From an uncultured Bacteriovoracaceae bacterium (GTDB lineage Bacteria; Desulfobacterota; Desulfomonilia; UBA1062), in assembly GCA_964572405.1 (NCBI GenBank), contig CAZNGL010000003.1:1-62706 (forward strand): a stretch of 62,706 nucleotides of DNA, read 5' to 3'. Made by a program: the position numbers and the translations under genes. The notes below the pieces were generated by a model that saw nothing but the letters and a program-made list of their open reading frames with translations, did not search any database and was not told the DNA's origin. Positions 58,912 to 62,706 of this stretch are shown one piece after another; position 1 is the stretch's first letter, and every line of letters starts with the position of its first letter.

Positions 58912-58985
58912 TGGGATGTCGTCTAATGGCAGGACACGAGATTTTGGATCTCGTTATGGAGGTTCGAATCCTCCCGTCCCAGCCA
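58912..58985 (+). tRNA. tRNA-Gln(UUG)
   Basis: Acceptor stem TGGGATG/CGTCCCA, anticodon stem CGAGA/TCTCG with loop TT-TTG-GA, GGTTCGAATCC T-arm, encoded CCA. Confidence 0.97.
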
Positions 58986-59163
58986 CGATTTCTCAAGCAA
59001 GACTGTCTGCGCGAAGCGATTCGCTTTGCATCCCGGTAACCGGAGAAGCACCCAGGACGGGCGGGGTACATCCCCACGAGCAAGACGCAGTACGGCTCAC
59101 ACCCAGATCTGGCGGCCGATGGCCGTCAATCCCGTTCCATCCTGCACCGGAAAGGAAGGCGCT

Positions 59164-60105
59164 ATGAACTCGAGCATCTGTATCCTTGCAGGGAATTCCC
59201 ACCGTAAGCTCACCGAGAGCATCTGTGCGATCCTCGACTGCCCGGTGGGTCGTGGCGAAGTGAAGCGGTTTTCCGACGGAGAGACGTCGGTGGACATCCA
59301 CGAGAGCATCCGCGGGAAGGACATCTTCATCGTTCAGTCCACCTGCTCCCCCACCAACGAGCACCTCATGGAACTCCTGGTCATGCTCGACGCCACGAAG
59401 CGCGCCTCAGCGAAGCGGATCACCGCGGTCATGCCCTACTTCGGATACGCCCGCCAGGATCGCAAGGCATCACCCCGGGCTCCCATCACGGCAAAGCTCG
59501 TGGCCAACCTGCTCACCGTGTCCGGGGCGGACAGGGTGCTCACCATGGATCTCCATGCAGGGCAGATCCAGGGGTTCTTCGATATCCCGGTGGACAACCT
59601 CTATGCAAAGCCCGTCATGCTGAGCTACATCCGCGACAAGTTCCCGGACGATCTCTGCATCGTGGCCCCCGACGCGGGCGGCGTGGAGAGGGCACGGGCG
59701 TATGCCAAGCCCCTCAAGGCCGATCTCGCCATCATCGACAAGAGGCGGGAGCGGGCCAACGAATCCAATGTGATGCACATCATCGGCGATGTGAAGAACA
59801 AGATCTGTCTCATCGTGGACGACATCGTGGATACCGCAGGCACGCTCACCAACGGCGTCAGCGCGCTCATGGACGCCGGCGCGAGCAAGGTCGTGGCATG
59901 CTGCACGCACCCGGTGCTGTCCGGGCCCGCCATCAGCCGCCTCACCTCGTCGGCCATCGAGGAACTCATCGTCACCGACACCATCCCCCAGAAGGAAGAG
60001 GCACTGGCGTGCGGCAAGGTCACGGTCCTCACCGTGGCGCCGCTGCTCGCCGAGGCCATCAAGAGGATCTATACGGGCTCATCGGTGAGCGAGCTGTTCC
60101 TCTAA
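59164..60105 (+). CDS. prs: Ribose-phosphate pyrophosphokinase
   Basis: FSDGE, PYFGYARQDRK, DLHAGQIQGFF, VAPDAGG and VDDIVDTAGT motifs. Confidence 0.97.
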   Translation: MNSSICILAGNSHRKLTESICAILDCPVGRGEVKRFSDGETSVDIHESIRGKDIFIVQSTCSPTNEHLMELLVMLDATKRASAKRITAVMPYFGYARQDRKASPRAPITAKLVANLLTVSGADRVLTMDLHAGQIQGFFDIPVDNLYAKPVMLSYIRDKFPDDLCIVAPDAGGVERARAYAKPLKADLAIIDKRRERANESNVMHIIGDVKNKICLIVDDIVDTAGTLTNGVSALMDAGASKVVACCTHPVLSGPAISRLTSSAIEELIVTDTIPQKEEALACGKVTVLTVAPLLAEAIKRIYTGSSVSELFL

Positions 60106-61601
60106 CGGTTGAGCGTTTCAGGCCTGTACTGGAGCGCCTCCGCCACGTGCGATTCCCGGATGTCCGCATGACCATCCAGGTCCGCGATGGTCCGGGAGAC
60201 CTTGATGACCCTGGCCAGCCCCCGCATGCTCAGGCCGTACCGCTTCATGGCAGAGGTCAGCAGCGACCTTGAGGCGTTGTCCAGCGGTGATACGGCTCTC
60301 ATCATGCCCTGTGGGATCGCTGCATTGAGGAAACCCCGTGCGTACTGTTCCGCCCTGGCGACGGCGATCCTGTCCCGGACAGAACCTGACGACGGGTTGC
60401 GGTCGGTTGACAGGGCGTTCTCCGCTTCCACCGGGTCAACCCAGACATGGAGATCGATGCGGTCCAGCAGCGGTCCGGAGATCCGCGACCGGTACCTGTC
60501 CACCAGCTGCGGCGGGCACCTGCACTCCCTCAAGGGGTGCCCCAGGTAGCCGCAGGGGCAGGGGTTCATGGCCGCGATCAGCTGGAAAGCGGCTGGAAAG
60601 GTGAAGGCGGAGCCTGCCCGGGAAACAGTGACGGTGCCGTCTTCCATGGGCTGTCGCAGGGCCTCGAGCGAGCTCCGCCGGAATTCGGGGAACTCGTCCA
60701 GGAACAGCACGCCCGTGTGGGCAAGGCTCACCTCTCCCGGTGTGGGTGTTGCCCCTCCACCGATGAGCCCTGCATCAGAGATGGTGTGGTGGGGAGACCT
60801 GAAGGGCCTGGTCCGGATGATCCCGTTCCTGGGGAGCCTCCCTGCGGCGGAATAGATGGCCGTGCACGCAAGGACCTCGTCGCGGCTCAGCGGGGGGAGG
60901 ATCGAGGGGAGTCTCCTTGCGAGCATGGACTTGCCTGCGCCCGGAGGTCCTGTCATGAGGAGGTTGTGGCCGCCTGCCGCGGCGATCTCCAGGGCGCGCT
61001 TGGCAAGCCCCTGGCCGACGATGTCGGAGAGATCGAGGTCGCAGGCGGCTGGTTCCGGCGCATCCCGGAAGAGCCCCCCCGCGGCGATGCCCTCCCCGGA
61101 CCGCAGGAAGGCGAAGGTCTCCTGCAGGCACTTCACCGGGATGACCTCCACCTCTGCGAGGAACGCCTCCCGCGTGTTCTGTTCGGGGCATATGATGCCC
61201 CTGATGCCCATCCGTCGTGCCAGGAACGCCGCCGAGATGACCCCCCGCACGGGCCGCACGCTGCCGTCGAGGCCGAGTTCGCCCACGATGAGATACTGAT
61301 CCAGAAGGGCTTTCGGGAGGTGCCCCAGGGCGGCGAGGATGGAAACCGCCACCGGGAGGTCGAAGGTGCCGCCCTCCTTCCTCACGTCGGCAGGCGCGAG
61401 GTTCACGGTGATGCGCCGGGGCGGAAACTCGAGACCCGAGTTCTGGATGGCCGATCTCACCCGCTCCCTGCTCTCCTTCACGGCGGAATCGGGCAGACCA
61501 ACGATGGAGATGCTCGGCAGACCTCCCTGGATATCGGCTTCCACCATCACACCAAGCGCATCAGTCCCCCACAGGGTCGCTGAGTGGACGCTTGCAATCA
61601 T
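60102..61601 (-). CDS. YifB/ComM family Mg chelatase-like AAA+ ATPase
   Basis: IVGLPD-x-AVKE, GPPGAGKS, LAHTGVLFLDE, NPCPCG and ISGPLLDRID motifs. Confidence 0.93.
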   Translation of the reverse strand: MIASVHSATLWGTDALGVMVEADIQGGLPSISIVGLPDSAVKESRERVRSAIQNSGLEFPPRRITVNLAPADVRKEGGTFDLPVAVSILAALGHLPKALLDQYLIVGELGLDGSVRPVRGVISAAFLARRMGIRGIICPEQNTREAFLAEVEVIPVKCLQETFAFLRSGEGIAAGGLFRDAPEPAACDLDLSDIVGQGLAKRALEIAAAGGHNLLMTGPPGAGKSMLARRLPSILPPLSRDEVLACTAIYSAAGRLPRNGIIRTRPFRSPHHTISDAGLIGGGATPTPGEVSLAHTGVLFLDEFPEFRRSSLEALRQPMEDGTVTVSRAGSAFTFPAAFQLIAAMNPCPCGYLGHPLRECRCPPQLVDRYRSRISGPLLDRIDLHVWVDPVEAENALSTDRNPSSGSVRDRIAVARAEQYARGFLNAAIPQGMMRAVSPLDNASRSLLTSAMKRYGLSMRGLARVIKVSRTIADLDGHADIRESHVAEALQYRPETLNR

Positions 61602-61609
61602 TACGATGC

Positions 61610-61639
61610 ATTTTACCAGATTCGCGGCAGGAGGTTCAA
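61610..61639 (-). promoter_or_regulatory. Sigma70 promoter for the YifB/ComM gene (likely leaderless)
   Basis: TTGAAC-N18-TAAAAT; the -10 ends 8 nt before ATG 61601 and there is no SD. Confidence 0.5.
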
Positions 61640-61800
61640 GGGCGCAGAAATTGGAACGCCCGGGTGCCCACCCTCGTTGTGTGCCCCAGTAAAACGCACA
61701 GCGCAGGAACTCGTCCTGCTCGTCTGCTCACGGGACACCTCTGCGGTGCGGTGGGAATCCCTGGCCTGAACGATCGGGGGCGCCTCGCATGTCCTGCGCG

Positions 61801-61830
61801 AAAAAGGGCGGGCCATGATAGCCCGCCCTT
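61801..61830 (-). terminator. Intrinsic terminator (minus strand)
   Basis: Perfect 10-bp stem AAGGGCGGGC/GCCCGCCCTT with a 7-nt loop, running into a U tract on the minus strand only. Confidence 0.8.
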
Positions 61831-62009
61831 GGTGAATGCGCAAAGTGCCGGTCCAGCGGCTGGGTTGTGCGGGCCATAGAGTCAGACAGGGTCAGTGGAA
61901 CGTGCCCCGATAGGCCCCACCACGCCTTGCCTCGCCGTGCCTGCCATGCCACGGCTTGCTCTGCCCAGCCTTAACGCGCCTGACCTTTGAGCGATCTTCG
62001 CGCATTCGT
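61801..62009 (-). ncRNA. Candidate structured ncRNA of about 180-210 nt, family not recognised
   Basis: Own promoter and terminator; 12-bp terminal stem (61834-61845 pairs with 61996-62007) plus nested stems; no credible ORF. Confidence 0.6.
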
Positions 62010-62016
62010 GGAATGA

Positions 62017-62044
62017 ATAATAACGTCCAAGCGGGCCCTGTCAA
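62017..62044 (-). promoter_or_regulatory. Sigma70 promoter of the candidate ncRNA
   Basis: TTGACA(62044-62039)-N16-TATTAT(62022-62017); predicted +1 at about 62009. Confidence 0.65.
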
Positions 62045-62189
62045 GGGGGGTGCGGAAAAAAATGAAAATTTTGAGAAATTAAATCATAAACAAATCAAAG
62101 GGATACAAGGCCAGAGAAATGGATAATAATAATTGAACGATAATAACCAGTTAGGTGATTCCAAGGTTTTCGATCAGCACCGGAGGGGT

Positions 62190-62661
62190 TTACGGGCTGA
62201 AGAACCAGGAGAAGAGCATGAGCATGACGGGCAGGCTCACCAGGGAGAACAGGAAGCTCGCCACCATGAACTGGTTCACGATGTTCCGGTTCCCGCCTTC
62301 CCGCTCCACGATGATGGGGACAGCGGTCACCGGTGGTACCGCGGCATGCATCATGATGATGAACGCCACCGGGTAGGGCGGCTTCACGAGCAGGAGCACC
62401 CCGAGGGTGGCAAGGGGGAACACGATGTTCTTCAGGGAGATGAACTTTGCGGTTTCGAGATAGGTGGGCCTCCCGCTCCCCTTCATGTCGATGTAGATGT
62501 TTCCCCCGAGCACGAGCATCAGCAGCGGCACCGCCATGGCCCCCACCAGTTTGAGCCCGTCGGAGAAAAACTTGGGTACCAGCGTTTCCAGGCCTGCCAG
62601 ACGCAGGGTCACGGCCAGGACGGTGGCGATGAGCACCGGGTTGAAGACCTTTGCAGGGTCC
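62190..62661 (-). CDS. AEC (auxin efflux carrier) family transporter, 5' truncated
   Basis: FNPVLIAT...LKLVG-x2-AVPL-x2-LVLG...KNIVFP...AAVPP pattern of AEC permeases; broken by adapter sequence. Confidence 0.8.
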
Positions 62662-62706
62662 AGATCGGAAGAGCGTCGTGTAGGGAAAGAGTGTAGGATA
62701 GGGTGG
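62662..62706 (+). other. Illumina TruSeq adapter contamination (with i5 index)
   Basis: Exact AGATCGGAAGAGCGTCGTGTAGGGAAAGAGTGT at 62662-62694, followed by AGGATAGG (reverse complement of CCTATCCT, the D503 index as I recall it). Confidence 0.97.

Follow-up and report, generated by a model that had tools for sequence, protein, structure and literature searches.

What kind of gene, if any, occupies the structured interval ahead of yifB (comM) in an uncultured member of the Desulfomonilia? The window analysed here, meaning the whole stretch of 62,706 nucleotides (nt) of contig CAZNGL010000003.1 (GenBank assembly GCA_964572405.1, an uncultured Bacteriovoracaceae bacterium placed by GTDB in Desulfobacterota; Desulfomonilia; UBA1062), had previously been interpreted from its letters alone. 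That sequence-only reading proposed an independently transcribed orphan noncoding RNA, possibly of a new family or a divergent 6S RNA. Our comparative analysis upholds the first part of this proposal. The interval contains what is very probably a real, independent gene for an RNA of ~209 nt (minus strand, 62009-61801, predicted +1 through the last U of the terminal tract), and this RNA represents a new family of a familiar kind, a lineage-restricted orphan structured small RNA (sRNA). The family consists of 10 distinct sequences, the window copy and nine homologs, all in uncultured Desulfomonilia. Its promoter and terminator are conserved, the gene is inverted in some relatives, its helices carry compensatory changes, and it matches no Rfam family.

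Boundaries of the RNA gene

The gene and its signals are as follows.

61801-62009, minus strand: RNA gene, scoring 236 bits with the family covariance model (CM); both ends are predicted
62057-62100, minus strand: A/T-rich tract upstream of the -35 hexamer, read from the sequence
62039-62044, minus strand: -35 hexamer TTGACA, from the promoter scan; the same in 9/9 loci with 5' flank
62017-62022, minus strand: -10 hexamer TATTAT, from the promoter scan; TATTAT or TACTAT among homologs
61801-61830, minus strand: intrinsic terminator, a G+C-rich hairpin of 11-12 base pairs (bp; 61830-61804) with a 5-nt loop, followed by U5 (61805-61801)

Promoters and terminators were scanned for over 800 nt (61500-62300), in which two promoter-like sites were found against 0.5 expected. 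The promoter of the RNA, TTGACA-N16-TATTAT, stands exactly where the sequence-only reading had placed it, with a +1 near 62009, and agrees with the consensus at 11 of 12 positions. A conserved A at 62009 lies 7 nt past the -10 hexamer. All nine loci with 5' flank keep the hexamers, the 16-nt spacer length and the 7-nt distance from the end of the -10 to the conserved A, while the sequence of the spacer itself is unconstrained. Homologs likewise have an A/T-rich tract upstream of the -35, amid GC-rich DNA, and this tract might act as an UP element.

At the opposite end, the terminator with its U tract, also part of the earlier proposal, is retained as a hairpin in all 10 sequences, with 88% mean identity; in its stem one pair is doubly changed and several have gone from G-C to G-U. 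It is a self-contained hairpin that begins 4 nt past the 12-bp closing stem of the RNA, leaving a terminator-less core of ~170-174 nt whose ends are paired by that stem. The simple consensus terminator scan returned no terminators in 61500-62300, a false negative, as the hairpin and U5 are plain in the fold.

The limits of the gene can be read directly from the conservation profile. From a mean pairwise identity of 0.28 in the upstream flank, conservation climbs to 0.59 across the promoter, 0.78 across the RNA core and 0.88 across the terminator, then drops to 0.23-0.25 downstream. This promoter-RNA-terminator island, steep-edged on both sides, is better conserved than the adjoining YifB protein (~70% amino acid identity). 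The RNA does not appear to encode a peptide. Single-nucleotide insertions and deletions are scattered through the alignment and break every frame; therefore no conserved open reading frame (ORF) exists in the RNA, even a small one, in agreement with the earlier claim that the transcript lacks an RBS-led ORF.

Homologs and distribution

Homologs were gathered by several routes. A YifB-guided genome scan yielded at least 80 loci (designated here by L numbers), its peptide patterns being too generic; L001 was the sole close relative among the matches listed, and the other 79 loci listed were used as negative controls for the CM. A two-block DNA pattern derived from the RNA found 9 loci in metagenomes, of which six were true contigs (three distinct sequences) and three, L090, L094 and L096, were chance matches with no likeness outside the pattern. 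YifB-guided contig look-ups added L081, L099, L101, L103 and L108. The homologs were confirmed by nhmmer, with E-values of 1e-46 to 1e-70.

Each locus has one RNA copy, and every copy adjoins the 5' end of yifB. The family CM found no further copies in 861 kb of collected sequence, including the 79 yifB loci from other phyla, and there were no matches in viral-contig or plasmid collections. Nor is there an RNA beside yifB in the equally close relatives L097/L098, L102, L105-L107 and L082-L087, which have short yifB upstream regions; in L083 the same AEC-yifB gene pair as in the window lies merely ~80 nt apart. So far the family has been found only in one subclade of uncultured Desulfomonilia (Thermodesulfobacteriota).

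Secondary structure and covariation

The window RNA has a minimum free energy (MFE) of -101.6 kcal/mol compared with -84.9 +/- 4.5 kcal/mol for 200 dinucleotide shuffles (z = -3.7), and 0/200 shuffles were as stable. Folded alone, L108 adopts the same architecture (z = -4.0), and L081 retains P1, P4, P6 and the terminator (z = -3.6). A consensus fold was obtained with RNAalifold on 6 and then 9 sequences, and the fixed structure was scored on 10. It comprises three stacked helices (P1-P3), a three-way junction, a side hairpin (P4) and a distal arm (P5-P6), with these elements in the window:

61996-62007, minus strand: P1 5' strand GAAUGCGCGAAG, 12-bp closing stem, one pair G-U
61834-61845, minus strand: P1 3' strand CUUUGCGCAUUC, pairing with GAAUGCGCGAAG
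between P1 and P2: J1/2, a variable internal loop
61979-61985, minus strand: P2 5' strand GGUCAGG, pairing with 61850-61856 CUGGACC
61971-61978, minus strand: J2/3, asymmetric internal loop CGCGUUAA, predicted unpaired, in which GCGUUAA is nearly invariant
61964-61970, minus strand: P3 5' strand GGCUGGG, pairing with 61858-61864 CCCAGCC; GGCYGGG/CCCRGCC in the family
61934-61955, minus strand: P4, side hairpin GCCGUG-loop-CACGGC at the three-way junction
61921-61933, minus strand: J4/5, junction strand GAGGCAAGGCGUG of 13 nt, in which CAAGGCGUGGU is invariant in 10/10
61913-61920, minus strand: P5 5' strand GUGGGGCC, pairing with 61867-61875 GGCCCGCAC, one bulge
between P5 and P6: internal loop of 3 x 11 nt
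61887-61909, minus strand: P6, apical hairpin CGGGGC/G(A)CCCUG, given as CAGGGC/G(A)CCCUG in the consensus fold, with a ~10-nt loop
between P5 and P3: J5/3, just AA, linking P5 back to P3

Most of the stems drawn in the sequence-only reading reappear here. The 12-bp pairing of the RNA ends, GAAUGCGCGAAG/CUUUGCGCAUUC, is recovered with its one G-U pair, and GGCUGGG/CCCAGCC, GCCGUG/CACGGC and GUGGGGCC/GGCCCGCAC form in both the single-sequence and the alignment folds. The stem GGUCAGGCG/CGCUGGACC survives in part: its GGUC/GACC and one or two G-C pairs, which make up P2, are retained across the family, and the window has an A.G mismatch within it.

In the 10-sequence alignment the fold pairs 96.9% of cells, and changes on both sides are seen in 8 pairs (21 cells). 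When the 3' partners were slid by 1-3 columns as a register control, pairing dropped to 31-49%, with at most 4 doubly changed pairs. The double changes are located in P3, P4, P5 and the terminator, with one in P1. P1 is 98% paired over nine sequences, 7 of its 12 pairs being invariant. P2 is 90% paired and changes solely from G-C to G-U, without double covariation. P3 is 100% paired, and its columns 43:150 alternate between U-A and C-G in several lineages. Two pairs of P4 are doubly changed, C-G to U-A and U-A to C-G, and P5 has 3-4 doubly changed pairs, with up to four pair types among its distal pairs. P6 is 100% paired with invariant stems, which makes covariation uninformative there; its apical loop varies in both sequence and length. 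The invariant nucleotides of the family are concentrated in the GCGUUAA loop, CAAGGCGUGGU and certain helix strands; the apical loop and the outer internal loop are variable. At 11 nt, CAAGGCGUGGU is the longest invariant stretch that is predicted to be single-stranded. A search for extra covarying columns or a pseudoknot among the 10 sequences gave a signal dominated by the phylogenetic correlation of L081 and L089.

As the transcript is a prediction, the conserved block could in principle be a DNA element, for instance a protein-binding site or the remnant of a mobile element, instead of an RNA. The pattern of substitution argues otherwise, as it keeps RNA pairing, including G-U pairs that would be meaningless in DNA. 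In addition, the promoter and terminator exactly bracket the conserved block, and the block occurs once per locus and nowhere else in the 861 kb or in the viral and plasmid collections. We find a DNA element scarcely credible on this evidence.

Searches against known RNA families

With Rfam 15 at gathering thresholds, the whole window returned a transfer RNA (tRNA) alone. At E<=10, a 501-nt query gave two sRNA models on the terminator hairpin and a 14-nt small nucleolar RNA fragment, all far below gathering, and the terminator-less cores of the window, L081 and L108 gave zero matches. ARAGORN detected no transfer-messenger RNA (tmRNA) and only a tRNA-Gln in the window, and Rfam gave no match to tmRNA or to the signal recognition particle RNA. 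In the literature we found no relevant yifB- or comM-associated motif or Desulfomonilia sRNA; PMC8632094 and PMC11109978 mention no yifB- or comM-associated motif. Orphan structured RNAs of unknown function are the usual product of comparative-genomics and GC-rich intergenic searches (PMC8632094, PMC11109978), and it is to this kind that the RNA belongs.

The second part of the earlier proposal, a divergent 6S RNA that would sequester the RNA polymerase (RNAP) holoenzyme by mimicking an open promoter, does not hold up. The RNA does have a 6S-like length (150-200 nt; the core measures ~170 nt, or ~174 nt in the window, without the terminator), ends paired in a long 12-bp closing stem and a strong promoter of constitutive type, features that are not specific to 6S. 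However, no match to the 6S clan was obtained at gathering or at E<=10 with the cores of three divergent members (window, L081 and L108). The fold has a three-way junction whose 5' side measures ~43 nt, a covarying hairpin among them, and whose 3' side is just 2 nt (AA); a two-sided bubble is therefore lacking. A 5-formyl-tetrahydrofolate cyclo-ligase gene commonly follows ssrS, whereas the neighbours here are an AEC-type transporter gene and yifB. Absence from this position in close relatives would also be unexpected for a near-universal housekeeping RNA, unless it had been relocated. We therefore regard a divergent 6S RNA as very improbable.

Several other identities were considered and rejected. 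By eye, AAGGCCGGGC, GAGGCAAGGC, UGAAUG and ACAACCCGGC resemble P4, J5/15, J18/2 and CR-V of RNase P RNA and might suggest an RNase P-like mini-core. In Smith-Waterman alignments to E. coli rnpB, nine members scored no better than dinucleotide shuffles, RNase P RNA gave no Rfam match, and the helices are nested rather than arranged around a P2/P4 pseudoknot. A retron msr-msd is rejected as well: the gene downstream is yifB or ilvD, not a reverse transcriptase, and an intrinsic terminator lies between.

More generally, the RNA might act in trans as a ligand-binding or catalytic molecule, such as a riboswitch-like sensor or a small ribozyme, with the junction and internal loop forming a pocket. 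The clustering of invariant nucleotides in the junction and internal loops of a compact fold, as seen in aptamers and ribozymes, would suit this idea. Against it, no Rfam riboswitch or ribozyme is matched, the terminator stands alone without a coupled expression platform, the likeness to RNase P core motifs is at chance level, and no pseudoknot or tertiary covariation is resolvable with 10 sequences. A ligand-binding or catalytic role thus appears improbable, if less so than 6S.

Genomic context and independence from yifB

The RNA gene is flanked upstream, on the same strand, by the 3' end of an AEC/Mem_trans-type transporter gene (stop at 62190) and downstream by yifB/comM (61601-60102), which encodes a Mg-chelatase-like AAA+ protein of 499 amino acids. 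Further features of this region are:

61610-61639, minus strand: yifB promoter TTGAAC-N18-TAAAAT with a TG extension, ending 9 nt before the ATG at 61601 and separate from the RNA
59026-60105, strand opposite to yifB: prs, beside yifB
58912-58985: tRNA-Gln(UUG), from ARAGORN

The order ispE-spoVG-(tRNA)-prs-yifB is kept across the relatives examined, and the best relatives of the YifB protein come from metagenome-assembled genomes of Desulfomonilia, Thermodesulfobacteriota or 'Deltaproteobacteria'.

The position of the RNA raises the possibility of a cis-regulatory 5' leader, riboswitch or attenuator of yifB/comM. In the window and 7/9 homolog loci (L088, L001, L092, L099, L101, L103 and L108), the RNA does lie upstream of yifB on the same strand, with the terminator between them. 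In L081 and L089 (the latter with duplicates L091 and L095), however, the RNA gene and yifB lie on opposite strands, with transcription of the RNA running away from yifB. Thus its position is not constant: it is inverted in these two loci and absent in close relatives. The spacer between the RNA and yifB ranges from ~55 to ~200 nt and is unconserved. The terminator is self-contained and competes with no part of the fold, as an expression platform would, and yifB has its own promoter. The extended -10 of that promoter (TCTGnTAAAAT), ~9 nt before the ATG, is conserved in L001, L081, L088, L089, L092, L097, L099, L101-L103, L105 and L108, a set that includes relatives without the RNA. The inversion in particular effectively refutes a leader function. 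Since its -10 ends ~9 nt before the ATG, the yifB promoter is predicted to produce a leaderless or near-leaderless mRNA across the clade.

The spacers themselves vary. At 61640-61800 the window has ~150 nt of additional G+C-rich sequence between the RNA terminator and the yifB promoter, as does L088; L001 lacks this extra spacer, having ~55 nt from terminator to yifB ATG, and beyond the closest relative the spacer is unconserved. In L081, positions 2492-2580, between the inverted RNA gene and ilvD, hold a 30-bp inverted repeat without mismatches around a 29-nt loop, and a T run comes after it; this may represent a large bidirectional terminator or else a small repeat element. At the contig end, 62662-62694 is an exact 33-nt Illumina TruSeq adapter (the reverse complement of ACACTCTTTCCCTACACGACGCTCTTCCGATCT) and is non-biological; it is followed at 62695-62702 by CCTATCCT, which we take to be the i5 index D503, and then by CCAC. 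This artefact truncates the ORF of the AEC transporter.

A phased GGC-N2 run

One further feature of the RNA is periodic.

61913-61950, minus strand: run of GG(C/U)-N2 pentamers, GGCAU GGCA GGCAC GGCGA GGCAA GGCGU GGUGG GGCC

The run has 6-8 in-phase GG(C/U) triplets with 2-nt spacers and reaches from the 3' half of P4 across J4/5 to the P5 5' strand. Six triplets are in phase in the window (p<0.001 versus dinucleotide shuffles), and most members show the same significance. Two units are degenerate in L081 and L089, yet the spacing is retained, and a 1-nt insertion even regularises it. The run may serve as a platform for protein binding, may be a tract prone to form a two-tier G-quadruplex, or may be left over from slippage.

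The periodicity of the run came to light through a phage BLAST match (E = 1e-5); the matching sequence is a (GGCNN)n tandem tract of Cheoctovirus mycobacteriophages that shares the periodic motif without being homologous to the RNA. The phage tract is ~250 nt long and is present in Mycobacterium phage Saal (NC_023580, 36585-36835; L109, 1350-1600) and 13 related Cheoctovirus records. It is unannotated and intergenic, lying between genes 50 and 51 in the neighbourhood of genes for a repressor, an antirepressor and an excisionase.

Proposed mode of action

Taking these data together, we propose tentatively, as a best guess with an even chance or slightly less, that the RNA acts in trans by binding or sequestering a protein. 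In this model, the near-consensus sigma-70 promoter, together with its A/T-rich upstream tract, would drive high expression of a ~209-nt transcript. The 12-bp end-to-end helix, with the terminator directly after it, should stabilise the RNA. The transcript would then work as a folded particle recognised by a protein, for binding, sequestration or as a scaffold. We infer this mode of action from the pattern of conservation: invariance of loop and junction nucleotides and of some helix sequences, set against freely changing apical and outer loops, suggests recognition of a three-dimensional shape. Within this particle, the phased GGC-N2 tract of P4, J4/5 and P5 might offer several docking sites to an oligomeric RNA-binding protein. 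A bolder version, in which the RNA would form the core of a new abundant Desulfomonilia ribonucleoprotein, with the GGC-N2 tract wrapping or titrating an oligomeric RNA-binding protein, is speculative, and we consider it distinctly unlikely.

The main rival is a trans-acting base-pairing sRNA, in which CAAGGCGUGGU or the GCGUUAA loop would serve as the seed and the terminator hairpin and U tail as a handle for a chaperone. Several features seen here would suit such an RNA: an independent promoter, intrinsic termination at a hairpin with a U tail, and 11 nt of predicted unpaired sequence that are invariant in 10/10 sequences. On the other hand, the 5' end is buried in the 12-bp helix and the fold is mostly rigid and multi-helix, which is unusual for seed-type sRNAs, and the conserved positions are distributed among multiple loops and helices rather than confined to one seed. 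In the 62.7-kb window, sequences complementary to the two invariant loops occur at chance level, a weak test given its ~55 genes. We judge base pairing possible but on the unlikely side, and it is a stronger contender than the ligand-binding, 6S, DNA-element or leader explanations.

A number of observations weigh against a protein-binding particle, or against the strength of the structural case on which it is built. Half of the GGC units fall inside the covariation-supported P4 hairpin, and the repeat may have arisen as a side effect of hairpin formation or through ancient slippage. The invariant single-stranded J4/5, at 11-13 nt, would suit a base-pairing seed equally well, and the gene neighbourhood points to no partner protein. 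True covariation is lacking in P1, P2 and P6, the last two being backed only by invariant or G-U-compatible pairs. Several of the double changes stem from the single split between L081/L089 and the remaining members, leaving ~6-7 independent compensatory events among 10 distinct sequences with 84% mean column identity. Finally, both the transcript and its ends are predicted. A trans-acting, protein-bound RNA nevertheless remains our preferred explanation.

Significance

Desulfomonilia are mostly uncultured and poorly studied bacteria of anaerobic digesters, sludge and sediments, and we know of no lineage-specific noncoding RNAs catalogued for them. If it is transcribed as predicted, the RNA adds a well-delimited, covariation-supported structured RNA family to this class. 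Its distribution is narrow, its representatives are few and its gene context gives no functional clue, so that in itself it is one more orphan sRNA and not a new principle. Clean boundaries, probably strong expression and a compact fold make it tractable for pull-down and structural work, and the phased GGC-N2 tract offers a concrete, testable protein-binding hypothesis. Should the ribonucleoprotein model be true, it would be a new regulatory RNA-protein pair, analogous yet unrelated to 6S-RNAP, CsrB-CsrA and the TRAP-trp leader.

Comparison with known systems

In RNase P RNA, P2 and P4 form a pseudoknot, in contrast to the nested helices of the present RNA. With the trans-encoded base-pairing sRNAs of the Hfq/ProQ type it shares an independent promoter, intrinsic termination with a U tail and a single-stranded stretch that is invariant; unlike them, the RNA is far more folded, sequesters its 5' end and has several conserved elements rather than one seed.

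The 6-8 phased triplets with 2-nt spacers recall CsrB/RsmZ, with their GGA repeats, and the TRAP-bound trp leader, with its (G/U)AG-N2-3 repeats. In TRAP targets the phased triplets wrap around a ring-shaped oligomer. The present RNA differs from the CsrB and TRAP targets in its triplet, which is GGC or GGU and not GGA or GAG, and in that half of the run is base-paired in a hairpin.

With 6S RNA (ssrS, RF00013) it has in common a stand-alone, strongly promoted gene, a length of ~170-200 nt and ends paired in a long closing stem, and it is plausibly a folded protein-binding particle. It departs from 6S RNA in sequence and structure, having a three-way junction with a 2-nt 3' strand where 6S has a two-sided central bubble, in its gene neighbourhood, and in a narrow, patchy distribution where 6S is near-universal. 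The RNA may thus be likened to 6S, CsrB and the Y RNAs in its manner of action, while being homologous to none of them.

A further parallel lies with the orphan structured noncoding RNA motifs such as raiA (PMC8632094, PMC11109978), although the RNA matches none of those catalogued in Rfam 15. Like them, it is a covarying multi-helix intergenic fold with few members in narrow taxa. These motifs often carry their own promoter and terminator, as is the case here, and they form the practical class to which the RNA belongs.

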